Positions 37,200 to 61,509 of a DNA stretch of 64,000 nt are shown here, piece after piece. The DNA lies in assembly GCA_963704825.1 (NCBI GenBank), contig CAVPHV010000017.1, forward strand, positions 102,325 through 166,324, in the 5' to 3' direction. Numbering within the stretch: position 1 is the stretch's first letter; each line of letters opens with the position of its first letter. The position numbers and the translations under genes were made by a program. The stretch comes from an uncultured Acidimicrobiia bacterium (lineage in GTDB: Bacteria; Actinomycetota; Acidimicrobiia; Spongiisociales; UBA5794). The notes beneath the pieces were generated by a model. That model searched no databases and was not told where the DNA came from. It saw only the letters and a list, made by a program, of their open reading frames with translations.

Positions 37200-37633
37200 C
37201 AACACATCGTCCTCCTGGAGTACTCGTCCTTGCCGCAGGTTATCGACACCGCTATGCCAAGGAGGGGCCGCGTTGGTGGCGGTAATGGGGCCTCGGGCTG
37301 GTCTCGGCACGCGAGGGGTCTGATCTGATCGCCGACGTTGTACACGGGGCGAATCGTGAGCAGGAGGTCGGCGGCAGCGTCTTCAACCATCGGCTTGATC
37401 GTAGGGACGCCAAAGGCGAGCAAGATGACCACGATGATTGTGGCCCAGCCGACACCGACGCGGAGTACCTACACCGACGTCACGGCGGTGGCCTGATCGC
37501 CACCAGAGACGCTGCTGAAGGCCTACGCCTGGTCGCTCACGTCGGCGGGCGTCGGCTAGATGCAACGACTCGAGGTCAGCCGGCGTCGGCGACCCGAAGA
37601 GCGGGCCGCCGACGGTTCGGACTGGATAGTGGG

Positions 37634-45882: not shown

Positions 45883-47452
45883 AGAGTCTCTCCAGGCGTT
45901 TGGTGAACCGGAAACTGAAGGCCGAGATCAGAGCCACGATGATGAAGATGAGGATGGCGAATGTGGCGGCGAGCGCAAACCTTCCGGCGTTCTGCGACAG
46001 CGAGAACGTGAAGGTGATGAGGAGATCGGTTTCGCCGACCGGTACGTCATAGGTGAGTAGCTGCGGTCCGCCGTTGGTCAGGAGGAAGATGTTGATGAAG
46101 TTGTTGAAATTGAAGGCAAACGATGCGATGAGCAACGGGGCGATGATCACCATCAGCATCGGGAAGGTGACCTTGCGGAACGTCTGGAACCCGTTGGCGC
46201 CGTCGACCTTGGCCGCCTCGATCAGCGACGTCGGTATCGACTGGAGCGCCCCCATCGAGATCAGCATCATGTAGGGGAAACCCTGCCACACGGTGACCAG
46301 GATCACCGACACCTTGGCCCAGAACCCATTGGTGAGCCACGGAACCGCAAACCCCGTCCACGCCAGCAGGTCGTTGTTGATCGGTCCGAAGTTGGTGTCC
46401 ATCAGCCCACGCCAGATCAGCACCGAGATGAAGGCGGGGATGGCGTAGGGCAAGATCAGGATCGATCGGTAGAACTTGATGCCGCGCAGTTGAACGTTGT
46501 GCAGGGTCAACGCCAGCCCGAGGCCGAGCGCCAACTGGAGGAGCACAACGGAGATGGCGAAGATGACGTTCCAGGTGAACACTCGCAGCAGCGGCCCCCC
46601 TACCCGTCGGTCGGTCAGGGCATCGACGTAATTGTCGGCTCCGATGAAGATGCGCCAACCCGGAGTGAGTACCCGCCCGTCTCCGCAGACGTAGTTGCCC
46701 TCAACCGGCACACATTCGGTGTCCTCGATGTTGTCGACCATCAGGTCGCGTGCCGCGTCGTATGTGTACCGCTGGATCTGGCCGGCCTGGGCCGTGGTTG
46801 CCGTCACCACGACGGCCTCGCCGACCGGCGTGTCGATCGCAGACGCCAGTAACTCACCCTCGACTGCGATCAGGTCGATCAATCTGAGCTTGCTGAAGCC
46901 GTCGATCTCGTCGGGTGGGGCGGCCGGATCATCGAGGGGGACTGGCTCACAGGTGCTCTCGCTGGGTGGATCCGTCTTGAGGCGTGGTGCCCCGAAACAC
47001 GTAGTGCCCTCGTCATCGACGAGGAGGAATTGAAGGTCGCCGTTCGGCGCCTGATAGACGGTGAGGGCGAACTGCGCCGGATCGTCGGAGATGACCTTGA
47101 TGCTCTCGAGCGAGGCCGTCGCCTGCTCCTTGTTGACGTTGTTCGGTTGGGCGAAGTTCGTCATCGAGAGGTAGATGGTGTACCCGATGGGGTAGACGAC
47201 AAAGACGAGAAGGAAGACCAGGCCGGGTGCGATGTAGCGCAACGGGATGGCCTTGCTGGAGAAGTAGATGAAGTTGAGCCCGACGGCGCCGACCGCCAAC
47301 AGCGCCATGACGAGCCATTGCTCTTGGTCGATCAGGCTGTACATCGCCCACAGGGCCATGGCATCGACGATCGCCATCGACCCGAAGCGGAACCAGAAGC
47401 CCGGTCCCAGGCTTCCGAATCGTCCGGAACGCGCCGAGGACGGGGCCGTCAT
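45869..47452 (-). CDS. Carbohydrate ABC transporter permease with large extracytoplasmic loop (MalF-like)
   Basis: 527 aa. N-terminal TM pair, ~230-aa periplasmic loop, then a core with EAA motif (SLIEAAKVDGANGFQTFRKVTFP). Overlaps the malG-like gene. Confidence 0.85.
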   Translation of the reverse strand: MTAPSSARSGRFGSLGPGFWFRFGSMAIVDAMALWAMYSLIDQEQWLVMALLAVGAVGLNFIYFSSKAIPLRYIAPGLVFLLVFVVYPIGYTIYLSMTNFAQPNNVNKEQATASLESIKVISDDPAQFALTVYQAPNGDLQFLLVDDEGTTCFGAPRLKTDPPSESTCEPVPLDDPAAPPDEIDGFSKLRLIDLIAVEGELLASAIDTPVGEAVVVTATTAQAGQIQRYTYDAARDLMVDNIEDTECVPVEGNYVCGDGRVLTPGWRIFIGADNYVDALTDRRVGGPLLRVFTWNVIFAISVVLLQLALGLGLALTLHNVQLRGIKFYRSILILPYAIPAFISVLIWRGLMDTNFGPINNDLLAWTGFAVPWLTNGFWAKVSVILVTVWQGFPYMMLISMGALQSIPTSLIEAAKVDGANGFQTFRKVTFPMLMVIIAPLLIASFAFNFNNFINIFLLTNGGPQLLTYDVPVGETDLLITFTFSLSQNAGRFALAATFAILIFIIVALISAFSFRFTKRLERLYGNL

Positions 47453-47511
47453 TTCGACCCCGTCCTCTGGTGTCCTCCAAACATGCTGTTGGAGGTTAGT
47501 CGGTTGCTACG

Positions 47512-48859
47512 TCAGGCTCCGATCAGACCGTCGATCTGTTCGCCGGCCGCGGTGAGCGCGGTCGTCGGGTCGGATTCGCCGTTGCGGATCTGGAGCATGG
47601 CGGCGCCCCACGAGTCCCAGACATCACCGGTCATCTGCGGGATGTTGGGCATCGGCTGACCGTTGGCGATCGACTCCGTGAAGGCGGCAACGATCGGGTC
47701 ACTCGACACGGCCTCGGCCACGGTCTTGTTGGCCGGGAGGCGCGGGTCGGCGTCATAGAGTGCCTGCTGCACCTCAGGCGTGGCGGCGTAGTCGTAGATG
47801 AAGGTCTTGGCGACGAGCACCTGGGTGGTCTGCGAGCTCAGGTAGATACCCCTGTGCGCCGAAGAACGGACGGGGCGTGTTGCCCTCCATCGTCGGGATA
47901 CTGATCACCTGGATTTCGAAGCCATTCTCGGCGGCGCCGGTCTCGGCATCACCACGGGCCCACGGGCCGGTCATCCAGAACAGCGCATTGCCCTGTTGGA
48001 AGGCTTCCTGCGCATTGCCGTAGTTGTAGGACGGGATGTACCCGGCGTCGACAAGTCCGGCCATGAAGTCGGCGCCGGCGATGGACTCGGGGGAGTCGAT
48101 GCCGGCGGTGTCGGCCGTGTAGCCCGTTGCCGGGTCGAACGTGAAGATCGAACCACCGAAGGCGGATTGGAACGGGAACATGTGGTAGGCGTCGGCTGCG
48201 TCGGCGCCACCGGGCAGCGCGATGCAGACCTGGTCACCGCTGAGCACGCTGTCACACAGCGCCGTCAGGTCCTCGAACGTTGCCGGGGCGTCGGTGGTGG
48301 CAGCCAGCGTGGTGTTCATCCACATGGCGATGCCCTCCATCTGGAACGGCAAGGCGTAGAGCGAGCCACCCAGGGTGAAGGCGGTGAGTGAAGGATCGAA
48401 GAAGTCCGCGGCTCTGTCGGCCGGGAGATCGTTCATCGGAGCGATCACGCCGGCGTCCGACAGCGGCCCGGTCCAGTCGTGGGCGCCGATGAAGACGTCG
48501 GGGCCTTCGCCGGTCGGGATCAGCTGAATCGCCTCGTCGCGGATCGAGCCGAAGTCCTTCTGCACCACCTCGATGGCGACGCCGGTTGCTGCCTCGAACT
48601 CAGGTGCGATGGCGATGATGGCCGGGGCACGGCTCTCGTCGGCCCACACCACCAGCGCCTCGGCTGCTGCGGCCGTGGTTGTCGTCTCAGGGGCAGCCGT
48701 GGTCGTTGTCTCTTCCATGGCTTCGGTCGTTGTCGTTGTGTCTTCCGTGGCTTCGGTGGTCGTTGTCGTGTCGCCAGCGCTGTCATCGTCGCCACAGGCG
48801 GCAGCGATCAGAGCAAAGGCAAGAACAAGGCCAACCAGAATCCGGTACCGACTTCTCAC
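47512..48859 (-). CDS. Maltose/maltodextrin-type solute-binding lipoprotein (MalE-like), interrupted by a 1-nt frameshift at ~47848
   Basis: GTG start at 48859 with GGAGGAGG SD. Lipobox-like LIAAAC and Thr-rich linker. N-terminal part in ORF 47774-48997 and C-terminal part in ORF 47512-47820. Frames join if one G is removed from CAGGGG, giving ...GAQGIYLSSQTTQVLVAKTF... Confidence 0.75.
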
Positions 48860-48954
48860 AAGAAGTCCTCCTCCGTTATCCAATGGGGTTGCGCGGGGCA
48901 TCTCGAGTGAGTGCCTCCGATGCTGGTAGTAAACCAGCAAACGCGAGTAAAGCA

Positions 48955-49010
48955 CGTTCCTTGCAGGATTTCCAATCACTTTCTGCAAGTCTTGCAAGAA
49001 CTTGCAAAGT
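48955..49010. promoter_or_regulatory. Candidate LacI-family operators in the divergent region between the mal operon and the LacI regulator gene
   Basis: Perfect 8-bp palindrome CTTGCAAG at 48991-48998 flanked by CTGCAAG (48983-48989), CTTGCAAA (49001-49008) and CTTGCAGG (~48958). Confidence 0.5.
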
Positions 49011-49026
49011 GGGGGATAGTAGGGGG

Positions 49027-50025
49027 ATGCGTCCCAAGCTCCAGGAAGTCGCCGCGCTCACCGGCGTGAGTGAAGCCACCGTCAGCCGCGTGATGAACGC
49101 CAAGCCCGGCGTGTCGGAACACACCCGCCGGTTGGTGCTCGACGTGCTCAGCGACCTCGGCTACCGCGAGGTCCCGGTGCGCACGGCGCGTTCGGGGGTC
49201 GTCGGCATCATCACCCCCGAGTTGGAGAATCCCATCTTCTCGCTGCTCGCTCAGACCATCGAGGCGCGGTTGGCCCGCCACGGGATCATGTCGGTCGTCT
49301 GTCCGTCGACATCTGAGACGATCCACGAAGACGACTACCTGGATCATTTGGTCGACATCGGGGCCACCGGTGTCGTGGTCGTCAACGGTCGTTACGCCCA
49401 GGCCGGCATCGGATACGAACCGTACGAGCGTCTACTCGACAAGGGGATTCCGACGGTGCTGGTCAACGGGATCTTCCCCGACTGCACCGTTCCGGCCGTG
49501 TCGATCGACGTCGCCGGTGCCGCAGCGTCGGGAGTGCAACACCTCACCCGTCTCGGCCACACCACGATCGGTTGTCTGATCGGCCCCCGTCGCTACAGCA
49601 CGTCACAGCTCCTGGTCGAGGGCTACCAGGAGGCAATCGCCGCAGCGGGGCTCAGGAACGGCAGCCGTCTCATTTCCGAGACTCTCTTCACGCTCGAGGG
49701 CGGCCATGCCGGCATGGCCAAGCTGCTCGAGGCCGGCGCCACGGGAGTCATCACCGGTGGTGATCTCATGGCCATCGGCGCCATCGGCGCCGTTCGGGCC
49801 TGGGGCGCCAAGGTGCCCGACGACGTCTCGGTTATCGGTCTCGATGGCACTCCAATCGCCGCCCTCACCAACCCGGCGCTCACCACCATGCGTCAACCGG
49901 TCGATCGCATGGCCGCCGCGGTTGCTTCGATGATCGTGGCCCAAGCCACCGACCAAAGCCGTCCCCGGCCCCAATTGTTCCGCCCCGAGTTGGTGGTAGG
50001 CGGCTCTGCCGCGGCGGCGCCGTAG
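49027..50025 (+). CDS. LacI family transcriptional regulator
   Basis: N-terminal HTH (LQEVAALTGVSEATVSRVMN) and periplasmic-binding-protein-like effector domain. ATG 49027 preceded by AGGGGGA. Confidence 0.85.
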   Translation: MRPKLQEVAALTGVSEATVSRVMNAKPGVSEHTRRLVLDVLSDLGYREVPVRTARSGVVGIITPELENPIFSLLAQTIEARLARHGIMSVVCPSTSETIHEDDYLDHLVDIGATGVVVVNGRYAQAGIGYEPYERLLDKGIPTVLVNGIFPDCTVPAVSIDVAGAAASGVQHLTRLGHTTIGCLIGPRRYSTSQLLVEGYQEAIAAAGLRNGSRLISETLFTLEGGHAGMAKLLEAGATGVITGGDLMAIGAIGAVRAWGAKVPDDVSVIGLDGTPIAALTNPALTTMRQPVDRMAAAVASMIVAQATDQSRPRPQLFRPELVVGGSAAAAP

Positions 50026-50048
50026 CGATCTGCGCAGCCAAACGGGTG

Positions 50049-50966
50049 TCAGTCTCGTTCGACGCGATCGTGATCGCTGGTCACGGTGACGGGACCATGC
50101 AGGTAGGTTCGGACGGTCGGGTAGGCGAGCTCGACCCGGTCGGTGCCGTCGATTCCGTCGAGAATGGCCTCCCAGACCGCCTGGGCGATGTCACGCTGCT
50201 GGCGCGCCCCCACCAGAAAACGGCACGTGAACATCACGCCGCTGTTGTCGACCGACAGGTACACGATGGGGGTGAGCGTCCCGACCTTGATGTGGTAGTC
50301 GCGGGCCGTCTCCCGAATCCGGGTTCCAGCTACTTCCTCGACATTCGCTGTGTTGTTGATCACGGCTCGTTCGAGGATCTGGCGCGCTTCGGTCCGATCA
50401 GACTCAAAGGTGACGAGGACGGGAATCTCGTACCAGATGAACTCAAAGCCCTCCGTGTAGTTCGCCACCTTCTTGGTGAACAGCAGGCCGTTGGGGATGT
50501 GAATGAGGCGTCCCGTCGACTGATCGGCGTCGACCCAATTCCCCACTTCCATCAAGGAGAAGCGGAAGAGGCGGACGTCGATGACGTCACCCTTGGTCCC
50601 ATCGATCTCGATGCGGTCTCCGAGTCGAAACGGTCTGCGGCTCAAGATGAAGAACCACCCGGCGAGGTTCTTGAGGACGTCTGAAAGTGCAATGGCGATA
50701 CCCGCAGACAGCAGGCCGAGGAAGGTGGGCAGATTGTCAAAGGCATCTATCCAGATCCAGGCCAACGACATGAGTCCAATGATCGTGGCCGTGTAGGTGA
50801 TCATCTTGCCGGCCCGATAGGCACTCCATAGATCGTCGGAGACCTTGGGTAGGGTGCGCAGGACGAGCCATCTGCCGATGAAGAGAGCCGCGATCACGAC
50901 AACGGAAGCGAGGAGCTTGCCCTGTGTGTCCGGCGAGATTCCGAGTTGTTCGGTGATCCACTCCAT
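50049..50966 (-). CDS. Small-conductance mechanosensitive channel (MscS family)
   Basis: Three TM helices followed by the MscS beta-domain signature (FRLGDRIEIDGTKGDVIDVRLFRFSLMEVGNW). Start at internal ATG (MEWITEQLG). Confidence 0.8.
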   Translation of the reverse strand: MEWITEQLGISPDTQGKLLASVVVIAALFIGRWLVLRTLPKVSDDLWSAYRAGKMITYTATIIGLMSLAWIWIDAFDNLPTFLGLLSAGIAIALSDVLKNLAGWFFILSRRPFRLGDRIEIDGTKGDVIDVRLFRFSLMEVGNWVDADQSTGRLIHIPNGLLFTKKVANYTEGFEFIWYEIPVLVTFESDRTEARQILERAVINNTANVEEVAGTRIRETARDYHIKVGTLTPIVYLSVDNSGVMFTCRFLVGARQQRDIAQAVWEAILDGIDGTDRVELAYPTVRTYLHGPVTVTSDHDRVERD

Positions 50967-50967
50967 G

Positions 50968-51465
50968 TCACTCGTCTCCCAGGCTGACGAGAAGACGCCG
51001 CAACAGTTGAGCGAGCGCATCCCGCTCGTCGGGATCGAGTGCCGCGAGCAGGTAGTCCTGCCTATCGAGATTTGATACGAGGATCTGATCGACCAGATGG
51101 CATCCCTCATCGGTGAGGCGGATAACGAGGGCCCGTCGATCTGACGGGTCGGCATGGCGTTCCACCAGGGCGGCATCCTCGAGTCGATCGAGACGGCTCG
51201 TCATGCCGCCCGTCGTGATGAGCGCTGCTTCGGCGAGTTGCGTGGGGGATAGCTCGTGGCGAGGCGTTTGCCGGCGGAGGGCGGCCAGTGTGTCGTAGTC
51301 GCCCTTGGTGCTCAGCCCGGCCTCGATGGCGCCCTGTTCGAGCTCAGTCTGTAGGTAACTGGCCAAACGGAGGATTCTGGCAACAACTTCGGTGGTTGAA
51401 GCATCGAGATCGGGACGCGCGGCTCCCCACTCGTCGATGACTCGGTCCGTGAAGTCGCGCTCCAT
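50968..51465 (-). CDS. MarR family transcriptional regulator
   Basis: 165 aa winged-helix segment (LSPTQLAEAALITTGGMTSRLDRLEDAALVERHADPSDRRALVIRLTDEG). Stop 1 nt before the mscS start. Confidence 0.75.
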   Translation of the reverse strand: MERDFTDRVIDEWGAARPDLDASTTEVVARILRLASYLQTELEQGAIEAGLSTKGDYDTLAALRRQTPRHELSPTQLAEAALITTGGMTSRLDRLEDAALVERHADPSDRRALVIRLTDEGCHLVDQILVSNLDRQDYLLAALDPDERDALAQLLRRLLVSLGDE

Positions 51466-51519
51466 TCGATACCCCTTACCACAAGATTACTTGAGATATT
51501 ACTATCATATCCCGAGGAG

Positions 51520-53088
51520 TCAACGTGGGGTGACGAGCCGGCCGCGAAACTTCCCCCACCGCCATTCGGCCGAGGTCTGGTCGACCCGCCACTCCACCGG
51601 CGTCTGGGGCGGTTCTGCGTTCTCGACTCGAGCTCGCACCGCTGCTCGGACTCGGTCCCTGAGATCGTCGGATCCGCTGAAGCGCATCGGGACTCTGCCG
51701 ACCTCGAGACCACCGGCGAGGGCGGAGGTTGTGTGGGTCAACGCCTGCTCGGTGCCGTAGAAGATGGCGGGCACCCCGGGGAGGGCGAGCACGGCATCCG
51801 TCGCGGCGGCCAGTCGCGCCGAGTCGCCGCTCCAGCGGTGCAGGCCACGACCCATGTCGTGGTTGTCGAAGAAGCGAACCCACGAGAAGTCTTCGTGGGC
51901 GAGCACGGCAGCCGCCTCTTGCTCGACCTCGACCAAACCGGCGGGGTCCAACTCGCCCCCGAGGAAGTCACGCAACGCATAGGCGAAGAGGAAGTCGGTC
52001 ACCCCGTCGAGCACTCCGCCGTAGCGTCGACAGAATGCCGGCGTCGCGGTGGCTTCTCCAAACAGCCAGGCCTCGGGATGGGTGCGGTTGAGTTCGCTCG
52101 ACAGGTCGGCAAAGAACGATTCGCTCGGCCCGAGCACATGGTCGATCCGGTAGCCGGCGACTCCGTACTCATCGAGCCAGTGCCGGGCGGCGGCGATCAG
52201 CGCGGCCCTCGCCTCGGGATGGTTCACGTTGACCTTGGGCATCCCGGGGTTCCCGAAGAACGTGTCGTAGCTGCCGTCTTCGTGGATGAAGAACCAGTCC
52301 CGGGTATCGCCACCTCGGCGGGCTTCGGTGAACCACGGGTGCTCATTCGAAACATGGTTGGGCACGAAGTCGAGCAGGACCCGGATGCCGGAGTTTCCCG
52401 CTGCGATCACCAGGTCGTTGAGGGCGGTGTTGCCCCCGAAGCGTGGATCGACCTGGCCGAAGTCCCTGGTGTCGTACCCGTGATAGCTGCTGCAGGTGAA
52501 GATTGGGGTGAGCCAGATCGTGTTGATCCCGAGGTCTGCGAGGTAGGGGACCTGTGCGGTGACTCCGGCGAGATCACCTCCGGCCCACGCTTTGGGGTGT
52601 TCGGGCTCGGGAACGGGACCGCTTGGGGTGGCGAATCGGTCGACGAAGATCTGATACACGACCGCATCGTGAGTCCATGGGGGCGGGCGTCGTGAGGTGA
52701 CGCGGTGGGTGAAGACGGTGGCGGCTCGCTGAGGTCTGCGGCCGTCGGCGTACCAGGCGCGTTCGGTCCCGTCCAAGCTGCGCACGACGTAGTTGACGAT
52801 GGTGCCGTCCGGCATCCCCGGCATCACCGCCTCCCAATGAGACCCGACCCGTCGGGCCGGGTATTCAACGCCGCTTGTTTCGATCGCTTGGGGCGTGACG
52901 GCGGCGGGGTCATCGGCGGCAACGATGGTGACCCGGCGCGCGTCCGATGTTGTGGTGACTCGCAGCACAATCGGTCGCCCCGGCCGAGGGACACTGGGGA
53001 TCCGGTCGTACTGGTGATCGACGGCCAGGCCTTGCTGGAGGTCGAACATGCCGAAGAGGAAGGCGGCTTGGGGGCGGCGGGGGAGCAT
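51520..53088 (-). CDS. GH13 alpha-amylase family glycoside hydrolase with N-terminal extra domain
   Basis: Conserved GH13 regions (DAVVYQIFVDRFA, GYDTRDF, VLLDFVPNHVS, GYRIDHV, EATA...). Confidence 0.8.
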   Translation of the reverse strand: MLPRRPQAAFLFGMFDLQQGLAVDHQYDRIPSVPRPGRPIVLRVTTTSDARRVTIVAADDPAAVTPQAIETSGVEYPARRVGSHWEAVMPGMPDGTIVNYVVRSLDGTERAWYADGRRPQRAATVFTHRVTSRRPPPWTHDAVVYQIFVDRFATPSGPVPEPEHPKAWAGGDLAGVTAQVPYLADLGINTIWLTPIFTCSSYHGYDTRDFGQVDPRFGGNTALNDLVIAAGNSGIRVLLDFVPNHVSNEHPWFTEARRGGDTRDWFFIHEDGSYDTFFGNPGMPKVNVNHPEARAALIAAARHWLDEYGVAGYRIDHVLGPSESFFADLSSELNRTHPEAWLFGEATATPAFCRRYGGVLDGVTDFLFAYALRDFLGGELDPAGLVEVEQEAAAVLAHEDFSWVRFFDNHDMGRGLHRWSGDSARLAAATDAVLALPGVPAIFYGTEQALTHTTSALAGGLEVGRVPMRFSGSDDLRDRVRAAVRARVENAEPPQTPVEWRVDQTSAEWRWGKFRGRLVTPR

Positions 53089-53129
53089 CGGCGGAGCGTA
53101 GCTCGCGGGCGAAGCTGCGGAGTGCCAAC

Positions 53130-54746
53130 ATGGGGTCCGTGAAGGGTCGCCTTGTTTTCGTCATGCATGCCCACTTGCCCTATGTCTTGGGTCACGGCGA
53201 GTGGCCATACGGGGCGTCGTGGTTGTACGAGGCCGCGGCCGACACCTACCTCCCGCTGCTCGGATCGCTCGAGGCGCTCCAGGCCCACGGGGTGCGGCCT
53301 GCGTTGACACTCGAGTTCTCGCCGGTGCTCGGAGAGCAACTCGATGATGACCGCTTTCGAACGGGTTTGGTCGGCCACCTTGGGGCGCTCATTGCCGCCG
53401 CCATACGGAACCGAGATGACGCCGCGGCGTCGGGCGATACCGACCGGGCCGAAATCGCTGAAGGGTGGCGGGATCGGTACCAAGCGATGCAGGACGATTT
53501 CGAGCGGCGCAATCGTGACATCCTGAGCGGGTTCGGCGCTCTTGATGCTGTCGGCGCGATCGAGCTGTTCACCTGCGCCCGCACCCACGGCTTCCTGCCC
53601 CTGCTCGGCTCAGCGGAGCGCACCCGCTGCCAGATCGAGGACGGCGTGGATTGGTTCCTGGCGCGGTTTGGCCGCAAGCCGCGCGGGATGTGGATGCCGG
53701 AATGTGCGTACCGCCCTGGTGGTCCGTGGCAGCCTGCCGCAGGCCTGCCACTCGACGGTGAGCGTCCCGGAGTCGAGGCGTTCCTGCAGGCGGCAGGCAT
53801 CGACTGGACGATCATCGACGCTCACCTCGTGACCAAGGGGGCTCCGATCGGCAACTATCCGCCGTGGTCGGCGACTGCCGGGCAAGGGTTGTCACCCCAC
53901 CAGATCTACACCCTGGGAGATTCAACGGTTGCGGCGTTTCCCCGCGATCCGACGACGACGGTCCAGGTGTGGTCGGGCGACGTTGGCTACCCGGCCAATC
54001 CGTGGTTCCTCGAGTTCCATCGGCGCCATCACGAAGGTGGGCTGCGCTATTGGCGAGTCACCGATCGCGAGCTCGACATCGGTGAGAAGGCGCCGTACCA
54101 ACCAGGTCCTGCACGCGCGGCCGTTGCCGAGCAGGGCCACCACTTTGCCCGGCTCGTCGGTGAGACTATCGCCAACACGGTTGCGGCCGGAGTTGAAGAT
54201 CCTGTGGTCCTGGCGCCGTACGATGCCGAACTCTTCGGCCACTGGTGGCGCGAAGGCGTGGAGTGGTTCACCGCTGCCAGGCGCGAACTCGACGCCGCCG
54301 GGATCTCGGTTGCCACGGCCTCGGAGGCGCTCGACGCCTCAGGCACTGCCCAAGCGGTACGGGTCCCGGCAGGCTCTTGGGGGGACGGCGGCGACTACCG
54401 GGTGTGGGATGTGCCGGCGACCGCCGATCTGTGGCGCGCCATCTACGCCGCCGAGGTCGGCCTCGAACAAGCCGAGGCGGAGGATCCGGAACCGCAACGA
54501 ACGCTGCGGACCGTGCTCGACCAGCTCCGCCGGACGGTGTTGCTCATCGAGAGTTCGGACTGGGCATTCTTGATATCGACCGGTACCGCGGTCCGCTACG
54601 CCACCGAACGCTGGAGAGGGCACGCCGCCGACGCCACCTTTCTCGTCGGCCTCGCCGAACACCTGGCCGGAGGCGACGCCCTCGACGGAGACCAGGAACG
54701 TGGTCTTGCCGGCCTCGTGGAGCGAGATAGGGTGTGGCTGCCGTGA
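53130..54746 (+). CDS. GH57 family 1,4-alpha-glucan branching enzyme
   Basis: N-terminal LVFVMHAHLPYV signature of GH57 plus catalytic Glu/Asp regions (WMPECAY..., FGHWW). Confidence 0.8.
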   Translation: MGSVKGRLVFVMHAHLPYVLGHGEWPYGASWLYEAAADTYLPLLGSLEALQAHGVRPALTLEFSPVLGEQLDDDRFRTGLVGHLGALIAAAIRNRDDAAASGDTDRAEIAEGWRDRYQAMQDDFERRNRDILSGFGALDAVGAIELFTCARTHGFLPLLGSAERTRCQIEDGVDWFLARFGRKPRGMWMPECAYRPGGPWQPAAGLPLDGERPGVEAFLQAAGIDWTIIDAHLVTKGAPIGNYPPWSATAGQGLSPHQIYTLGDSTVAAFPRDPTTTVQVWSGDVGYPANPWFLEFHRRHHEGGLRYWRVTDRELDIGEKAPYQPGPARAAVAEQGHHFARLVGETIANTVAAGVEDPVVLAPYDAELFGHWWREGVEWFTAARRELDAAGISVATASEALDASGTAQAVRVPAGSWGDGGDYRVWDVPATADLWRAIYAAEVGLEQAEAEDPEPQRTLRTVLDQLRRTVLLIESSDWAFLISTGTAVRYATERWRGHAADATFLVGLAEHLAGGDALDGDQERGLAGLVERDRVWLP

Positions 54747-56080
54747 AGATCCTGATGTCGGCCGCCGAGCTCGCCCCATTCGTCCGCACCGGAGGTCTGG
54801 GGAACGCCGTCGAGGGACTGGCCGGAGCGCTGGCCCGACTCGGCCATGAGGTGACGGTCACCGTTCCCGGGTATCGCGATCTCGAACCGGAAGGCACCCC
54901 GATCGGTGGGAGCTGGTATCGGATCCCCGACCCCCTGCTCGACGTCCTTGCCTACCGAGACGCCTCGTTTGCCCGCCCCGGGGTCTATGGACCCGAGCCC
55001 GGCACCGGCTACGACGACAACTGGCTGCGCTTCGGCCGCTTCGCCCGGGCGACGGCGGACCTCGCCGGCGACTTCGACGTACTCCATCTCCACGATGCTC
55101 ACGTTGGTGCGGCGGCGCTGCTGGCGCCGGTTCCGACCGTGTTCACGATCCACAACGCGGCCCACCCGATGCTGGGGCCACTCGATGAAGCGGCCGCCTT
55201 GCTCGGAGTGGCTCCCGAGGCGGCGATGCCCGGCGGTGCCCTCGAGTGGTACGGCTCGGCCAACTATCTCAAGGCAGGCATGGTCGGTGCCGACCGGGTG
55301 ACGACGGTGAGTCCGGGGCACGCGGCTGAACTCGCCGTACCGGACACGTCGTTTGGCCTTTCCGGCATCGTTGGCTCCCTGGCCCACCCCATCGTGGGGA
55401 TCTTGAATGGGATCGACACCACGTCGTGGGATCCAACAACCGATGTCACGCTCCCGGCGCCGTTCAGCGCCGATGACCTGAAGGGCAAGAAGAAGTCGCG
55501 GGCGGCGTTGATGGGCGTGGCGGGCCTGAGCGACGGCCAGGTCTTCGGCAACGTAGGGAGGATGGCGCGCCAGAAGGGCCTCGGCCTTCTGGCGCCCACC
55601 ATCGACGATCTGGTGGCTGAAGGCTTCCGATTGGTGTTGGTCGGCAACGGCGAACTCGATGCCATGGTCGACGACTGGGTGCTGCGTCACCCGGGTGCTG
55701 TGGCTCACCTGCCCTACCAGGACTCGCTGTCGCGGCTGGTGTCGGCCGGCGCCGATGCCTACCTGATGCCGTCGGAGTTCGAGCCCTGCGGCCTCGGACA
55801 GTTGTACGCGATGCGCTACGGGACGCCGCCGGTCGTGCGCCTCACCGGGGGTCTCGCCGACAGCGTGCATGACATCGACGAGCACGACGATCGCGGCACC
55901 GGACTTGGGTTCCGCACGTTTGAGCCGGAATCGTTGGCCAAGACGATTCGCCGGGCCATGCGCTATCACCTTGGTTTGCCTCGGCTTTGGAATCGGATGC
56001 AGGTGAACGGGATGACCGTTGACTGGTCGTGGGAAGCCCGCGCCGCCGAGTATGAGGCGGTCTACGCCGCCTCCGGTTGA
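54734..56080 (+). CDS. glgA: Glycogen/alpha-glucan synthase (GT5, GlgA-like)
   Basis: N-terminal KILMSAAELAPFVRTGGLGNAV motif (KTGGL variant) and C-terminal GT-B domain. Start overlaps the GH57 gene end. Confidence 0.8.
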   Translation: MAAVKILMSAAELAPFVRTGGLGNAVEGLAGALARLGHEVTVTVPGYRDLEPEGTPIGGSWYRIPDPLLDVLAYRDASFARPGVYGPEPGTGYDDNWLRFGRFARATADLAGDFDVLHLHDAHVGAAALLAPVPTVFTIHNAAHPMLGPLDEAAALLGVAPEAAMPGGALEWYGSANYLKAGMVGADRVTTVSPGHAAELAVPDTSFGLSGIVGSLAHPIVGILNGIDTTSWDPTTDVTLPAPFSADDLKGKKKSRAALMGVAGLSDGQVFGNVGRMARQKGLGLLAPTIDDLVAEGFRLVLVGNGELDAMVDDWVLRHPGAVAHLPYQDSLSRLVSAGADAYLMPSEFEPCGLGQLYAMRYGTPPVVRLTGGLADSVHDIDEHDDRGTGLGFRTFEPESLAKTIRRAMRYHLGLPRLWNRMQVNGMTVDWSWEARAAEYEAVYAASG

Positions 56081-56172: not shown

Positions 56173-59016
56173 ATGACCTGGCACGGAGAACGATGGGAGG
56201 ACCGTCGCTTCCGGGCCTGGCTGATTCGTGCCGTCGTCTTCATTGTGCCCGTTGTGGCTGCGATCGTGGTGGCGACGGTCGTGGCCAACTCACTGCCCGA
56301 CCCCGAAGGACTCCCGGGCAGCTTGGCGTGGTGGGCGCTCGTACTCGGATCGTCGTTCGGAACCATGTGGCTGGTCGACCGCATCGCCCGGCAGCTTCTG
56401 CCGCTGGCAGCGCTCCTGCGGATGTCGCTGGTGTTCCCGGACAAGGCACCATCTCGGTTCAGCGTTGCGCTGCGGTCGCATTCGTCGCGTCGCATGCAAG
56501 CCGAGGTCGAGCAGGCGCGTGCTGCCGGGGTCGATGACGATCCCACCAGGGCCGCGGAGTTTGTCTTGGCGATGGTGGCCTCGCTGGGTGACCACGATCG
56601 TCTCACCCGCGGTCACGCCGAGCGGACCCGGGCCTATACCGATCTGCTCGCCGAGGAATTGGGCATTCCGGCGGACGACCGTGACCGCTTGCGATGGGTG
56701 GCCCTTTTGCACGATGTCGGCAAGCTGGGGGTTCCGGCCGAGGTTCTCAGCTCCGACCACAAGCTCACCGACGATGACTGGGCCCATGTCAGGAATCACC
56801 CCGCCGATGGGTTCGAGCTGACCCGCCCGATTCATGAGTTCCTGGGACCATGGGCCGTCACCATCCTCCACCATCACGAGCGGTACGACGGTTCAGGCTA
56901 TCCGGCGGGGATCGCAGGAGAAGATATCGCCTATGGTGCCAGGGTCGTCGCGGTCGGGGATGCCTACGACGCGATGACCGCGTTTCGCACCTATCAGCCG
57001 GCGCTGTCGACGGCTGCGGCCCGAAAGGAACTCGCTGCCGGCGCCGGATCCCAGTTCGACCCCCACGTGGTGCGGGCATTCCTCAGCCTCTCGATGGGAA
57101 GCCTGCGCCGGGTGGCCGGTCCGCTTGCCTTCCTCGGACAGTTGCCCTTCATTGGGGGCCTGCGGCGGCTCGGTGACACCGCGACTGCCGCTATTGCAAC
57201 CACGGCCGCATTGGGCGTAGCTCTCGTCGGCGGACTGATTCCCGGGCCAAACGGTGGAGTGAGCGTCGGCGACATCGTTCCTTCCTACGCCGGCCAGGAC
57301 GTATCCGAGTACCAGGTGAGCTGGGACGGCGACGGGACGTTCGACCCGAACAACATCGACCCCGACACGGTGTTGATCGTACAGAGCCCGACCGAAGGCG
57401 TCGTGGCGCCCAACGCCGATGGTGTCCTCGTCTACTTGCCGGGCCCGGGGCCGGTCACCGGTGACCGCTACGTGGTCAGGTTGTGCGACATGGATGGCGA
57501 CTGTGTGTCGCTTCCGGTTGTCGTACTCCCCGAAGATGACGTTGTGACCGCTCCTCCTGAGGGCGGCGCGACGCCGACCAACCCTCCGCCACCTGCAACG
57601 ACCACCACGTCGTCGACGACCACGACCTTGGCGACGACGACCACGGGATTCCCGACACCGAGCACGCTGCCTCCGCAGACGACGACCACCGCCCCGCCGA
57701 CCACAACCACGACGACGACCAAGCTTCCGCCGACCACCACGACCACCACGACAACGACGGTTCCGCCGACCACCACGACCACCACGACAACGACGGTTCC
57801 GCCCCACCACACGACCACGACCACCACGACAACGACAACCACCACAACAACGACGACGACGACGACGCTGCCACCGGCACCGCCCGATGCGGTGCCGGAT
57901 TCCGCCGCTACCGACGAGGACGTCCCGGTCGTGATCCCGGTGCTGGCGAACGATTCAGACCCCGACGGCGACCTCGATCCGGCCACTCTGGCCGTGACCT
58001 CGGCCGCGGCGCAGGGGACCGCCACCGTCGTCGGTTCGGAGATCGAATACGTCCCGGCTGCCGATATCTCGGGTGCAGATTCGTTCGACTACGAGATCTG
58101 TGACATGGGAGGCAGGTGCTCGACGGCTGCGGTCACGGTGACGATCGCCCCGGTGAACGACCCGCCTGTTGCTGTGGACGACACTGCGTCCGGGCAGCCG
58201 CGGACGGTCATCGTGATCGACGTGCTCAGCAACGACAGTGACATCGACGGCGGCCCGCTCACCATTTCTGGATCCGATCCCATATCGGCCTTGGGTGGCT
58301 CCGTTACCTGCGGCGCGCAATGCACTTACATCCCACCCGACCCGTGGACCGGACCCGACACTTTCAGCTACGTCGTGAGCGACGGCGCCGGGGGCGTCGA
58401 TGCGGCGACGGTGACGGTGACCCCTACGACGCCCGACACTGAGCTCTTTCTCCGCGCCGCCGGCGCCGGCAACCAAACCTCCACTCCGGTGCTGCCGCTC
58501 TCGACCGGGGCCGGCCCCACCAACGCGTCTCTGCCCAACTACGACACCAATCGTGATGCCGGACCGGGGCTGTTCTTGGAGCAGGTCAACGGCGGGATCG
58601 GGGTCCAAATCGCCGAGACCAACCCGGCTCGGTACCAGCTCTGGTCGTATCCGCTGGCGAGCGACCTCGTGCTCAATGGCGACGCCTCCATGGATCTCTG
58701 GGCAGGAATGGCCGCGCTCCAGTCGGGGGTGCACGGCCGGCTGCGTGTGTTCGTGCTCGACTGCCCGGCGGGTTCGATCGACGGCACAGACTGTATTCAG
58801 ATCGTGCGTGAGTATGACGACCGTGACCCGTGGACAACGGTGGATCTGCAATGGGAACGGGCCGTGTGGGATTTCGGCACACTCGCCTACACGATTCCGG
58901 CGGGCCGCTCCCTCACCTTGAAGGTGGTCGTGGCCGGCCCCAATGCCGACGACGACATGCGGGTTGGCTTTGATGCCGCCGGCTTCGAGAGCAGCTTCGT
59001 GCTCCGGGCGGGGTAG
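56173..59016 (+). CDS. Membrane HD-GYP domain protein fused to an extracellular Thr/Pro-rich linker, two cadherin-like/VCBS-type repeats and a C-terminal beta-rich domain
   Basis: Two N-terminal TM helices, then HD-GYP signatures HDVGK and HHERYDGSGYP (aa ~90-330) and a third hydrophobic segment. A long poly-Thr stretch follows. Repeats carry the motifs VPVVIPVLANDSDPDGDL and TVIVIDVLSNDSDIDGGPL. C-terminal ~180 aa domain. Confidence 0.7.
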   Translation: MTWHGERWEDRRFRAWLIRAVVFIVPVVAAIVVATVVANSLPDPEGLPGSLAWWALVLGSSFGTMWLVDRIARQLLPLAALLRMSLVFPDKAPSRFSVALRSHSSRRMQAEVEQARAAGVDDDPTRAAEFVLAMVASLGDHDRLTRGHAERTRAYTDLLAEELGIPADDRDRLRWVALLHDVGKLGVPAEVLSSDHKLTDDDWAHVRNHPADGFELTRPIHEFLGPWAVTILHHHERYDGSGYPAGIAGEDIAYGARVVAVGDAYDAMTAFRTYQPALSTAAARKELAAGAGSQFDPHVVRAFLSLSMGSLRRVAGPLAFLGQLPFIGGLRRLGDTATAAIATTAALGVALVGGLIPGPNGGVSVGDIVPSYAGQDVSEYQVSWDGDGTFDPNNIDPDTVLIVQSPTEGVVAPNADGVLVYLPGPGPVTGDRYVVRLCDMDGDCVSLPVVVLPEDDVVTAPPEGGATPTNPPPPATTTTSSTTTTLATTTTGFPTPSTLPPQTTTTAPPTTTTTTTKLPPTTTTTTTTTVPPTTTTTTTTTVPPHHTTTTTTTTTTTTTTTTTTTLPPAPPDAVPDSAATDEDVPVVIPVLANDSDPDGDLDPATLAVTSAAAQGTATVVGSEIEYVPAADISGADSFDYEICDMGGRCSTAAVTVTIAPVNDPPVAVDDTASGQPRTVIVIDVLSNDSDIDGGPLTISGSDPISALGGSVTCGAQCTYIPPDPWTGPDTFSYVVSDGAGGVDAATVTVTPTTPDTELFLRAAGAGNQTSTPVLPLSTGAGPTNASLPNYDTNRDAGPGLFLEQVNGGIGVQIAETNPARYQLWSYPLASDLVLNGDASMDLWAGMAALQSGVHGRLRVFVLDCPAGSIDGTDCIQIVREYDDRDPWTTVDLQWERAVWDFGTLAYTIPAGRSLTLKVVVAGPNADDDMRVGFDAAGFESSFVLRAG
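57726..57810 (+). repeat. Perfect 36-nt tandem repeat (2.3 copies) inside the poly-Thr linker of the HD-GYP gene
   Basis: TCCGCCGACCACCACGACCACCACGACAACGACGGT occurs twice in tandem (57726-57761 and 57762-57797), followed by a partial third copy. Encodes PPTTTTTTTTTV. Confidence 0.7.
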
Positions 59017-59526
59017 TCACCGCAGCGGGCGTTCCAGTTCCCAGACCGCTACGGCGAGCCCATCGACATCCTGGGTGCCCTGCTCGGTGCGGGTGAACTC
59101 GTGCAATTCGTAGAAGTCGAGGGCGCGTTCGTTGTCGGCTTCCGTTTTGACGATCATCTTTTGGTAGCCGGCGTCGTGACAGGAGGCCACCGTCGCCGCC
59201 ACGAGGGCGGTTCCGATGCCGTGCCCCAGCAGCGACTGCAACACCATGATCCCGGCCAACTCCACGGTGGCTTCGTCGATCCGGGTTGTGGCGGAGAACC
59301 CGACGACGCGCCCGCCCGACCGTGCCAGGAACATGCGCCGATCGGGTCCACCGAGACGCTCCACGATCGCCGCCTGGGTGGTGAGTTCGCGGATGACCTC
59401 ATCGGTGGCGCCGGCAAATCCGGGGGCGTCGGGGCCGGCCTGTTGCCACGCCTCCCAGAAGAACGCGGCGAAGGCGCCGGCGTCGTCGGCGGTGGCCTCG
59501 GCGACGGTGATCGGGCTGGCGTCCAT
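59017..59526 (-). CDS. GNAT family N-acetyltransferase
   Basis: Start at internal ATG (MDASPITVAE). Motif IMVLQSLLGHGIGTALVAATV. Confidence 0.7.
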   Translation of the reverse strand: MDASPITVAEATADDAGAFAAFFWEAWQQAGPDAPGFAGATDEVIRELTTQAAIVERLGGPDRRMFLARSGGRVVGFSATTRIDEATVELAGIMVLQSLLGHGIGTALVAATVASCHDAGYQKMIVKTEADNERALDFYELHEFTRTEQGTQDVDGLAVAVWELERPLR

Positions 59527-61070
59527 CACACGACGCGCCAGATGGACCCGGAGCGCGGTCCGATCGAGAGGCGGGCGTTGTTGTCCCCGGGTTCGACCAT
59601 GTCTTGACCCCACAGCACTTCCAGCCGGTCGCCGGCGAAATCGCTCAGCGGCAACACCAAGGTTTCGCGCTCCTCCCCGGCGTTGATGGCGACGATGATC
59701 TCCTCGCCGGGGGCGGTCCGTTCGATGACGGTGAGCATCGTGCCGTGCTGTCCGGGCGGCGGCCAGACGCGGCGGTAGTTGGCGGAGCGCAACGCCGGAT
59801 GGGCCTTGCGCAGCGCGATGAGTTGTCGGAAGGTTTCCAGCAGGTCGGTATTCCACTGCGCCTCGTCCCACGGGAAGCCCCCGCGGGAGCCGGGTTCCTT
59901 GGCACCATCCATTCCGACCTCGGTGCCGTAGTAGATGCTCGGTGCCCCGGGAAAGGTGAACAGCAGCAGGGCCGCCAGCTCGACGGTGGTGACGTCACCG
60001 CTGGCAATGGTACGGATCCGGGCGGTGTCGTGGGAGTCGAGCAAGTTGAGGTTGGCGAGGTGGGCGTGCTCGGGATATGAGGCGAGCAGTCGATCGATAC
60101 GATCGTTGTACCCGGCGGCATCGATCGGCGGCAGGATGTCGTACCACGGATTGTCGAGGGTCTGTTCGGGATCGACTCGCGAGCCGGCAGCGAAGGCGAT
60201 GATGGCGGTGGTGAGCAGGTAGTTCATCGTCCCGTCAAAGCGGGTGCCCGACGCGATGTAGTCGGAGGCGTTCGACCAGATCTCGCCGACGATATATGCG
60301 TCGGGATTGATGGCGCGAACCCGTTGGCGGAACTCCTCCCAGAAGCCGGGGGTTTGGATCTCCTCGGGCACATCGAGCCGCCAGCCGTCGATGCCGAGCC
60401 GCATCCAATGTTCGCCGACCTGCATCAGGTACTCCCGAACCTCAGGGTTGTCCGTGTTGAACTTGGGGAGTGCCTTGATGCCCCACCACGCGCCGTAGTT
60501 GGCCGGTTGATCGCCGTAGGGGTGCAGCGGCCAGTCGTAGATGTGGAACCAGTCGGCCCACGGTGAGCCCGCCCCGTTCTCCAACACGTCGTGGAACTGG
60601 AAGAAGCCACGGCTGGAGTGATTGAGTACGGCATCGAGCACGACCCGGATACCACGTTGGTGACACGCTTCGAGGAACTCGCGGAATGCTTCGTTGCCAC
60701 CGAGGAGTGGATCGACTTGGAAGTAGTCGTGGGTGTGATAGCGATGGTTGGAGCCGCTTTGGAAGATCGGGTTGAGGTAGATGGCGGTGATCCCGAGGTG
60801 GCTCAGGTGATCGAGCCGTTCGGTGATCCCGAGCAGATCACCCCCCTTGTACCCGTGGTGCGTCGGCGGTGACTCCCAATGCTCGAGCCCGTTTGGCTTG
60901 TCCAACCGAGACGAGCGGGCAAATCGATCCGGGAAGATCTGATAGAAGACTGCGGCGTTGGTGACCCACTCGGGCGGCCGGTGGAAGCGTTCTGGTTCCT
61001 GGGGGTGGGGTCGTTCGCAGTCGGCGCACCAGTGCCAACCCTCGCGGCTCCGCAGGTCTGGAGGTTCCAT
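59526..61070 (-). CDS. GH13 alpha-amylase family enzyme (alpha-glucosidase/cyclomaltodextrinase-like)
   Basis: AVFYQIFPDRFA, GITAIYLNPIF, VVLDAVLNHSS, GWRLDVPEE, GEIWS and LDSHDTAR conserved regions I-IV. Confidence 0.85.
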   Translation of the reverse strand: MEPPDLRSREGWHWCADCERPHPQEPERFHRPPEWVTNAAVFYQIFPDRFARSSRLDKPNGLEHWESPPTHHGYKGGDLLGITERLDHLSHLGITAIYLNPIFQSGSNHRYHTHDYFQVDPLLGGNEAFREFLEACHQRGIRVVLDAVLNHSSRGFFQFHDVLENGAGSPWADWFHIYDWPLHPYGDQPANYGAWWGIKALPKFNTDNPEVREYLMQVGEHWMRLGIDGWRLDVPEEIQTPGFWEEFRQRVRAINPDAYIVGEIWSNASDYIASGTRFDGTMNYLLTTAIIAFAAGSRVDPEQTLDNPWYDILPPIDAAGYNDRIDRLLASYPEHAHLANLNLLDSHDTARIRTIASGDVTTVELAALLLFTFPGAPSIYYGTEVGMDGAKEPGSRGGFPWDEAQWNTDLLETFRQLIALRKAHPALRSANYRRVWPPPGQHGTMLTVIERTAPGEEIIVAINAGEERETLVLPLSDFAGDRLEVLWGQDMVEPGDNNARLSIGPRSGSIWRVV

Positions 61071-61509
61071 GTCGCCGGGTCCCCTGTCTCGATTTCAATG
61101 ACTGCATCGGTCTTCTCGGCGAGCCACCGTAGCCAATCGACGGCCCATTGATCGAAGTCCGCCAACCGATCGCCCCACAGCGATGCCTCGGGCGACCCTC
61201 ATGACTCTCCTCGCAAGGTCGAGGAGGACCGTCTCCAGCGTTTCTGGGTCGGCTCGTTCGAGGAGGGGAGTCGGACTTCCCGCTTGGGGAGGCATACGGG
61301 TATCGAGTCGAATCGCTTCGGAATCTGACATTGTCCGGGTCGCCGCCGCTCGCAAACTGGTCACCTCAGTGTTCTACGGGATGTGTGACGGTGAGATCCG
61401 CTGCCTGAAGGAGGCGGGCCCGGGCGAGTGTCGAGACTTGGTGTTTGGAAAGGGTCTTGTGATTCTTGTCGTAAGAATCGGTGGCTGAGACCTTCTAGGG
61501 GGTGAGGTC

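Follow-up and report, generated by a model that had tools for sequence, protein, structure and literature searches.

A conserved Acidimicrobiia family that joins a predicted HD-GYP phosphodiesterase to putative C-terminal extracytoplasmic modules

According to a census of HD-GYP proteins, the HD-GYP domain is typically C-terminal with sensors on its N-terminal side, and no HD-GYP protein with an extracytoplasmic sensor had been characterized experimentally; the census mentions neither Actinobacteria nor domains placed C-terminal to HD-GYP. In Streptomyces, HdgA and HdgB are HD-GYP proteins with six transmembrane (TM) segments. The Desulfovibrio protein DvhD is an HD-GYP receptor for cyclic di-GMP (c-di-GMP) that does not hydrolyse its ligand and has SQ for HD and MN for HH. 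Here we describe a gene of an uncultured Acidimicrobiia bacterium, found at positions 56173..59016 on the + strand of a 64,000-nucleotide (nt) stretch of contig CAVPHV010000017.1 (hereafter, the window), in which the parts of the product are ordered otherwise: two TM segments, HD-GYP, a third TM segment (TM3), an Ig-like domain, a Thr/Pro-rich stalk, two Big_9 repeats and a jelly roll. The typical HD-GYP layout is not found, as only a TM hairpin lies upstream of HD-GYP and ~640 residues lie downstream of it. A three-pass membrane protein of a monoderm Acidimicrobiia bacterium, with the TM hairpin and TM3 bracketing a cytoplasmic HD-GYP domain, is strongly supported. We hypothesize, with a probability of about 0.5, that the protein is a one-component receptor phosphodiesterase that exerts outside-in control of c-di-GMP hydrolysis.

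The closest described enzymes are those of the PmGH (Protein Data Bank entry 4MCW), PA4781 (4R8Z) and RpfG family, with which the window protein shares the HD and HHExxDGxGYP motifs, the metal ligands and the fold (template modelling score of 0.70 to 4r8z). In those proteins the sensor or receiver is N-terminal, whereas in the window protein TM segments lie on either side of the HD-GYP domain and ~590 residues that are predicted to be extracytoplasmic come after it; RxxQ and a juxtamembrane module with two TM segments, for which there is no Pfam model, are further differences. DvhD and the Pseudomonas protein LapD are alike in another respect, since they also link cytoplasmic c-di-GMP chemistry across the membrane to outside repeats of the adhesin type, DvhD by means of an HD-GYP domain. 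DvhD and LapD are catalytically dead, however, whereas the active site of the window protein appears intact from its sequence. Their outside domain is N-terminal, lies between two TM segments and acts on a separate protease (DvhG or LapG) and separate adhesins, whereas in the window protein the adhesin-like part is a covalent C-terminal extension, and the neighbourhoods examined showed no protease partner.

Receptor Ser/Thr kinases of the PknB/PrkC type, which occur in monoderms, consist of a cytoplasmic catalytic domain, a TM segment and C-terminal extracellular repeats that bind envelope ligands. The order of parts is the same in the window protein, although the analogy is one of layout only: PknB has a kinase rather than an HD-GYP domain, PASTA domains rather than Big_9 repeats and a jelly roll, and no N-terminal TM hairpin. 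Finally, the repeats resemble those of tandem-95, Big_9 and cadherin-like surface proteins, scoring well over the respective thresholds and carrying a DxDxDG-type motif, and there are secreted proteins that lack HD-GYP but have the same repeats and jelly roll. Such surface proteins have only a leader or an anchor and no cytoplasmic enzyme. A literature search that combined HD-GYP with Acidimicrobiia, with cadherin, or with Actinobacteria and transmembrane found no description of this architecture. What is new is the architecture as a class without a published description in the searchable literature; the sequences themselves are already in databases, where members are labelled 'tandem-95 repeat protein', 'Ig-like domain-containing protein' or 'HD-GYP domain-containing protein'.

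Reading frame and HD-GYP domain

The gene is a complete open reading frame (ORF) with an ATG start that encodes 947 amino acids (aa) and a stop. The start of the protein (MTWHGERWEDRR) agrees with the N-termini of homologues, such as MTWQGERWKDR in P0007, and its C-terminal end is ...GFESSFVLRAG. Two close, full-length homologues (P0002 and P0010) are colinear with the query from end to end, the C-terminal domain included. GC content is even along the whole of the gene. A scan for promoters and terminators round the gene found none, which is uninformative for a high-GC actinobacterium. A first-pass annotation of the window, made from its sequence and ORFs without database searches, had placed the ORF correctly and was right in all of its descriptive elements; its statement that HD-GYP sensors are normally N-terminal agrees with the census.

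That annotation had also raised the concern that the junction at ~57150 could be a gene-fusion artefact. The point in favour of this concern is a related assembly (L001; ENA ERZ25039600 contig_21141, 288.9 kb), 99.1% identical to the window over 11 kb and the only one with a split version, in which the locus is called as two genes of 642 aa and 303 aa; the 642-aa product is homologue P0003, 99% identical to the query. Alignment of the DNA traced the split to two 1-nt deletions in L001, 6 nt apart at nt 57805 and 57811, within the repeat that encodes poly-Thr and downstream of TM3 and the Ig-like domain (CCGCCCCACCACACGACC in the window versus CCGCCC-ACCAC-CGACC in L001; window 57805-57811, L001 7631-7640). 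Past the deletions, P0003 continues as out-of-frame junk (DHDHHDNDN...). L001 has three more 1-nt indels relative to the window, each an extra G, at 51799, 51904 and 52447, all in an adjoining GH13-like gene (51520-53088, - strand) that is intact in the window (521 aa, an alpha-amylase-family protein; PF00128, 1.1e-50), whereas L001 retains only a 248-aa fragment of it. From this, L001 would seem to be an assembly prone to indels. Because the split stems from 1-nt deletions and L001 also breaks the neighbouring GH13 gene, we take the frame of the window to be right; indel errors in L001 explain the split best, and a strain-level pseudogene is the most that it could otherwise be. The architecture of homologues leads to the same result. 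The 120 best homologues come from many samples and sequencing projects in four source collections, and most of the named ones are Acidimicrobiia metagenome-assembled genomes (MAGs); all 120 match the N-terminal TM region and HD-GYP, and 119 also have Big_9 in a single ORF. The indel comparison and the homologue architecture together exclude the concern about the junction.

The HD-GYP domain occupies 56560..57093 (aa ~130-307; this and all other features of the protein are on the + strand). Pfam HD_5 matches aa 138-299 with an E-value of 1.2e-31, and Pfam HD matches with 1.2e-12. The HD pair at residues 180-181 is part of HDVGK (aa 180-184), and the HHExxDGxGYP motif reads HHERYDGSGYP (aa 234-244), a motif kept in 116 of 121 sequences (the query and 120 homologues). 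Seven predicted metal ligands (H148, H180, D181, H209, H234, H235 and D263) align with the ligand positions of 4mcw, 5z7c and 4r8z, and in a 21-sequence family alignment they are invariant together with K184 (the Lys of HDxGK), E236, G240, G242, Y243 and P244. H148, H209 and D263 are the counterparts of PmGH H189, H250 and D305. A sequence search of the Protein Data Bank returned V-cGAP3 (5z7c, 2.6e-27), PmGH (4mcw, 9.6e-27) and PA4781 (4r8z, 1.7e-25). An AlphaFold2 (AF2) model, whose predicted local distance difference test score (pLDDT) is mostly 75-93 within the domain, was used in a Foldseek search that returned 9rbz, 4r8z and 4mcw with E-values of ~1e-7; the target template modelling scores were 0.70-0.74 for 9rbz and 4r8z. 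The modelled domain superposes on DvhD, PA4781 and PmGH, with DvhD as its closest structural neighbour. Pfam, motifs, ligand alignment and Foldseek agree on the HD-GYP identification that the first reading of the sequence had made.

Judged by these motifs the domain appears competent for catalysis, and an enzyme is predicted rather than a receptor because the HD and HH motifs are kept, unlike in DvhD. The position of PmGH E185, the Glu of the third metal, is occupied by Leu144. According to the census, a Glu of the E185 type marks a trinuclear sub-family that can convert pGpG to GMP. The equivalent of E185 is also absent from PA4781, which is bimetallic. Because of Leu144, the domain is predicted to belong to the binuclear sub-type of the census classification, and the expected reaction would be c-di-GMP to pGpG. 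An invariant Asp142, two residues upstream of Leu144, could conceivably serve as a substitute ligand.

Membrane topology and outside modules

TM1 (56215..56292, aa ~15-40) has a Kyte-Doolittle hydropathy peak of 2.96 (aa 20-38) and is modelled by AF2 as a helix over residues 12-40 (pLDDT 84-94). It is preceded by an Arg-rich N-terminus, predicted to be cytoplasmic, with five Lys or Arg (K+R) within aa 1-20. TM2 (56311..56382, aa ~47-70; AF2 helix 46-74) is weak by hydropathy, at 1.33 (aa 50-68) against a family median of 1.95. TM1 and TM2, with a short (~11-aa) predicted outside loop, PDPEGLPGS, between them, form a helical hairpin that AF2 models with confidence (pLDDT 84-94). TM3 (57172..57240, aa ~334-356) has a hydropathy of 1.91 (aa 338-356) and an AF2 helix at 334-352 with pLDDT <45. 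Across the family, TM3 starts at a median of 102 residues past the GYP motif, and its hydropathy exceeds 1.5 in 79 of 87 members. The two TM helices and further hydrophobic segment of the first-pass annotation correspond to these three peaks.

Two segments tether the catalytic domain to the membrane and are the best-conserved non-catalytic stretches of the protein. The first, after TM2, contains LLPLAALLRMSLVFPDxAPSR and includes the juxtamembrane segment RQLLPLAALLRMSLVFPDKAPSRF (56383..56472, aa 71-100), a conserved family signature without a Pfam model, in which P77, F88, P89, A92, P93 and R95 are invariant in the 21-sequence alignment. A Pfam search of aa 1-136 gave no match, and AF2 pLDDT falls below 50 at aa 77-95. 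The hairpin with the juxtamembrane motif RRLLPLAALLRMSLVFPDxAPSRF (56215-56472, aa 15-100) is a signature across HD-GYP relatives in Acidimicrobiia, Thermoleophilia, Acidothermaceae and Cellulomonas. The second tether is the basic, Gly/Pro-rich linker before TM3, GSLRRVAGPLAFLGQLPFIGGLRRLG (57094..57171, aa 308-333), with an invariant P317 and near-invariant R312, G316 and P325.

Topology was assessed by the positive-inside rule and by Cys distribution in 87 proteins of the family, with conserved motifs as anchors. The average number of K+R in 20 aa was 3.8 before TM1, 3.7 after TM2, 1.4 before TM3 and 0.4 after TM3 (1.44 versus 0.43 for the two sides of TM3), and the TM1-TM2 loop (~13 aa) had a mean of 1.1. 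The K+R share was 11.9% in the predicted cytoplasmic part versus 3.9% in the predicted outside part, and the Cys share was 0.20% versus 0.98%; in 84 of the 87, the outside Cys are even in number. In the window protein, all eight Cys lie beyond TM3, where each of the four folded domains has one close pair (438/444, 643/649, 713/717 and 864/874). The types of domain found in the tails, namely Big_9/cadherin and, in an Acidothermaceae homologue, CBM_2, are those of extracytoplasmic proteins, and the jelly roll is also found in many proteins that start with a hydrophobic leader. Because of the charge bias, the paired Cys and the tail domain types, the C-terminal region is placed outside; a topology with the N-terminus and HD-GYP inside and the C-terminal 591 residues outside is well supported as a prediction, in line with that proposed in the first-pass annotation. 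There is no LPXTG sorting signal at the C-terminus, and TM1-TM3 are the sole hydrophobic segments.

The predicted outside part begins with an Ig-like domain (57286..57528, aa ~372-452), a small beta sandwich with Cys438/Cys444. It falls below the Pfam threshold for Big_9 (E-value 3.8e-4, 21.7 bits against a cutoff of 23.6), is modelled by AF2 with strands at 401-451 (pLDDT 75-85) and is present in 45 of the 120 homologues. It is followed by the Thr/Pro-rich stalk (57535..57885, aa 455-571, ~117 aa), part of which is a 36-nt repeat encoding T9-V-P-P, with an indel-prone site at nt 57805-57811. At this site the window has PPHHTT where preceding repeat units have PPTTTT, and the exact repeat sequence is less certain. 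In length the stalk would suffice to span a monoderm wall, and it is probably a target of O-glycosylation. Big_9/cadherin-like repeat 1 (57886..58167, aa 572-665) has the motif VLANDSDPDGD and Cys643/Cys649; repeat 2 (58168..58434, aa 666-754; best Big_9 stretch 662-750) has the motif VLSNDSDIDGGPL and Cys713/Cys717. The two match Big_9 (PF17963) at 1.3e-37 and 129 bits (cutoff 23.6), overlapping models being Cadherin_5 (2e-21) and Cadherin_4 (9e-20), with 76 bits for PF17892 and 71 bits for PF17803, and the NCBIfam 'tandem-95 repeat' model NF012211 is reached with 114 bits against a cutoff of 90. DxDxDG-type motifs in the repeats (NDSDPDGD and NDSDIDGG) are putative Ca2+ sites. The HD and cadherin-like models named by the first-pass annotation are matched, as is Big_9, and the poly-Thr/Pro stalk, two cadherin-like repeats and C-terminal beta-rich domain it described are all present.

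The last of these, a jelly-roll beta sandwich of 193 residues (58435..59013, aa 755-947; Cys864/Cys874), had no Pfam match at E<=10 in the window protein, nor did its family profile match any Protein Data Bank sequence at E<=1. AF2 with a 30-sequence alignment gave a jelly-roll sandwich at pLDDT 96.3, whose fold is similar to the C-terminal domain of PepX/CocE hydrolases. Conserved features are a D-x-D-x-D-x-x-PGL motif, the Cys pair and invariant Trp residues. PepX_C (PF08530), of X-Pro dipeptidyl peptidases, CocE and NonD, has a galactose-binding-domain-like fold; the window jelly roll differs in being unattached to an alpha/beta-hydrolase and in having the conserved Cys pair and the D-x-D-x-D-x-x-PGL motif. 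Of 50 relatives, five reach the Pfam PepX_C model. A profile search of 1.84 billion representatives found 1009 clusters at 50% identity (750 at 1e-10). Among 140 newly retrieved representatives, 24 had the HD-GYP motif, and the partners in the remainder were Big_9/cadherin repeats, S8 peptidases, DUF6701 and more. We regard the jelly roll as a mobile module of extracytoplasmic proteins that is divergently related to PepX_C and lacks a model of its own.

Exchangeable tails and genomic setting

The first homologue search returned at least 119 distinct 90%-identity clusters with the same architecture, which is therefore that of a large conserved Acidimicrobiia family. The layout had been called unusual in the first-pass annotation, which holds for the reversal of the usual HD-GYP order but not for the protein as a singular oddity. 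When a single genome was scanned for each species, ~37 genomes, mostly of Acidimicrobiia, proved to have the complete core with its TM hairpin. The top identity to the query was 54%, which means that the species of the window is not among the GTDB representatives. The cultured strain Actinospongicola halichondriae Hal317 bears the core, as do Acidothermaceae B102, a Cellulomonas MAG, Thermoleophilia and Gaiellaceae. Streptomyces genomes in the scan match the query over HD-GYP only (residues ~131-304).

TM3 and a Pro/Thr-rich linker are followed by tails that differ. The tail is three Big_9 repeats and the same jelly roll in A. halichondriae, CBM_2 (2.8e-16) in the cultured Acidothermaceae bacterium B102 (L031, AP028633.1), pentapeptide repeats in the Cellulomonas MAG (L039) and weak Big_9-like repeats in Thermoleophilia. 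Tails vary in both type and length, and family proteins have 520-1600 aa overall. The core of two TM segments, HD-GYP and TM3 has the appearance of a signalling chassis on which the C-terminal outside modules can be exchanged and vary by lineage. The CBM_2 variant of B102 would be the most tractable model for ligand control of HD-GYP.

In the window, the gene is flanked by genes for a GH57 branching enzyme, a GT5 glycogen synthase and two GH13 proteins. The wider alpha-glucan and sugar-uptake region (44956-56080 and 59526-61070) contains two ABC permeases, a LacI-type regulator, an MscS-type channel, GH13, GH57, GT5 and a second GH13, and the GH57 stop overlaps the GT5 start (54734-54746). The first-pass annotation had set the gene in the middle of an alpha-glucan cluster, which is correct for the window but specific to this genome, as this context is common only to the 99%-identical strain (L001) and the neighbours at the loci of four homologues of differing relatedness are unrelated. 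P0002 and P0007, whose best aligned segments have 81% and 59% identity to the query, lie between M23 peptidase and MFS/EamA transporter genes, P0045 comes after a pyruvate dehydrogenase E1 gene, and P0020 comes after cbb3 oxidase genes and before giant He_PIG/Big_9 proteins. After P0020, a DDE transposase and two He_PIG/Big_9/RibLong proteins (1398 aa and >1083 aa) form a possible adhesin island (L005, 10695-17666). A functional tie to the alpha-glucan cluster as a general feature was rejected, and we take the glycogen context to be coincidental. By the Pfam labels of neighbours, neither a LapG/DvhG-type protease nor a separate adhesin gene was found round the window gene or the four homologues.

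Several other observations were made in the window. The stop of a convergent GNAT gene on the - strand abuts the stop of the HD-GYP gene with no spacer. The 284-aa GNAT ORF (59017-59871, - strand) overlaps the upstream GH13 ORF (59526-61070, - strand) by ~345 nt; its true start is probably near 59526, and a related assembly calls GNAT as 169 aa. About 2.5 kb of L001 (10971-13512), with an Na+/H+ exchanger-Usp protein, is missing from the window at ~61145, similarity being resumed at 61103-61328 (94.7% identity); this is a strain-level insertion or deletion. Further off, 29628-33233 (+ strand) encodes a 1201-aa single-chain pyruvate:ferredoxin oxidoreductase (POR_N, POR, EKR, Fer4 and TPP_enzyme_C) that is notable for Acidimicrobiia, and 35856-37310 (- strand) encodes a radical-SAM/SPASM protein with a C-terminal SEC-C motif.

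A possible signalling role

As a receptor phosphodiesterase, the window protein would bind a surface, a polysaccharide or another ligand through its outside modules, or these would come under tension. The signal would pass via TM3 and the conserved segments on both sides of HD-GYP, and the result would be altered c-di-GMP hydrolysis at the membrane. The domain order would be reversed, with the catalytic part first and the sensor last, as in PknB-type Ser/Thr kinases. A signalling role is favoured over that of a mere anchor because the heads are exchangeable and the tethers are conserved, and an enzyme is favoured over a DvhD-like receptor because the active site appears intact. The first-pass annotation had suggested that the adhesin-like module could tie contact with a surface to the turnover of c-di-GMP. 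This is a reasonable suggestion and no firmer than that; the variable tails (CBM2, pentapeptide repeats, Big_9 with jelly roll) speak for a sensor of ligands or surfaces no less than for an adhesin. In a more specific and quite tentative form, the protein may be a single-chain transducer from surface to second messenger, in which the jelly roll and Big_9 repeats would bind a polysaccharide, a surface or another cell and the load or occupancy, conveyed along a wall-spanning, probably glycosylated stalk and TM3, would switch the membrane-clamped HD-GYP, and may represent a modular class of actinobacterial receptors with exchangeable C-terminal heads.

Several findings weigh against a receptor phosphodiesterase for c-di-GMP. 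The topology is one predicted from sequence statistics. In the AF2 model (aa 1-465), TM3 and both conserved linkers have pLDDT <50, so that no mechanism of signal transmission can be read from it. No conserved neighbourhood indicates an output pathway at the four homologue loci, and the pentapeptide repeats of the Cellulomonas tail are no typical extracellular sensor. As for the substrate, the RxxK motif that contacts c-di-GMP is RxxQ (R272, Q275), RSYQ being the family consensus, and sequence similarity gives no split between c-di-GMP and 3'3'-cyclic GMP-AMP (cGAMP), as the E-values for 5z7c and 4mcw are 2.6e-27 and 9.6e-27. A scan for the GG[DE]EF motif in the window and 370 kb of related flanks saw none, in a sample too small to inform, and a literature search found no diguanylate cyclase census specific to Acidimicrobiia.

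Of the alternatives, two are about equally placed, both being unlikely without being far-fetched. In the first, the direction is inside-out: HD-GYP would be a c-di-GMP-sensing switch like LapD or DvhD that changes the presentation of the attached outside module through extension, clustering or cleavage, so that c-di-GMP would control adhesion directly. The closest structural neighbour, DvhD, is indeed a c-di-GMP-bound HD-GYP receptor in inside-out signalling, adhesin-type repeats make up the outside part, and a nucleotide-driven change in an HD-GYP domain tethered to the membrane at both ends could move TM3. However, the core metal ligands are intact and invariant, unlike those of DvhD, an active enzyme would destroy its own signal, and a LapG/DvhG-type protease gene is missing from the neighbourhoods examined. 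In the second, the outside region would have no signalling role and would be a passive tether that fixes a constitutive HD-GYP at envelope sites (wall or matrix) as a local c-di-GMP sink, or the protein would be a surface protein anchored by its HD-GYP core. The wide differences in tail type and length and the low complexity of the stalk are consistent with this, as is the lack of a C-terminal sorting signal, which leaves the TM core as the sole visible anchor. The segments that flank HD-GYP by TM2 and TM3 are nevertheless among the most conserved of the family, which fits a transmission element rather than a mere anchor.

It is improbable that the substrate is 3'3'-cGAMP or pGpG instead of c-di-GMP and that another pathway is affected. 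The top sequence match is the cGAMP-specific V-cGAP3, and RxxQ and the lack of a GGDEF gene in the DNA examined point the same way, but V-cGAP3 stands only marginally above PmGH by a negligible gap in E-value, Foldseek ranks the c-di-GMP-binding 9rbz, 4r8z and 4mcw over 5z7c, and the DNA sample is too small to judge the absence of GGDEF. The census also reports an RxxK-motif variant that still hydrolyses c-di-GMP. That a separate HD-GYP gene and a secreted Big_9 gene were joined by mis-assembly or a frameshift error in the window is next to negligible in view of the L001 comparison, the homologues and the even GC content.

Among c-di-GMP phosphodiesterases, the HD-GYP class has been studied less, and this family reverses the order of input domains described for it. 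The family is abundant in Acidimicrobiia, an environmental class that is widespread and has received little study. Two domain families that lack models are defined, namely the N-terminal juxtamembrane module with two TM segments and the PepX_C-like extracytoplasmic jelly roll of ~1000 clusters. Because cultured carriers exist, namely A. halichondriae Hal317 and Acidothermaceae B102 with its CBM2 head, the question of a receptor phosphodiesterase is directly testable. Through this layout, contacts made by the cell may be connected with its internal signalling. If the single-chain transducer is true, the multi-protein logic of LapD/LapG/LapA (or DvhD, DvhG and adhesin) would be collapsed into one polypeptide.

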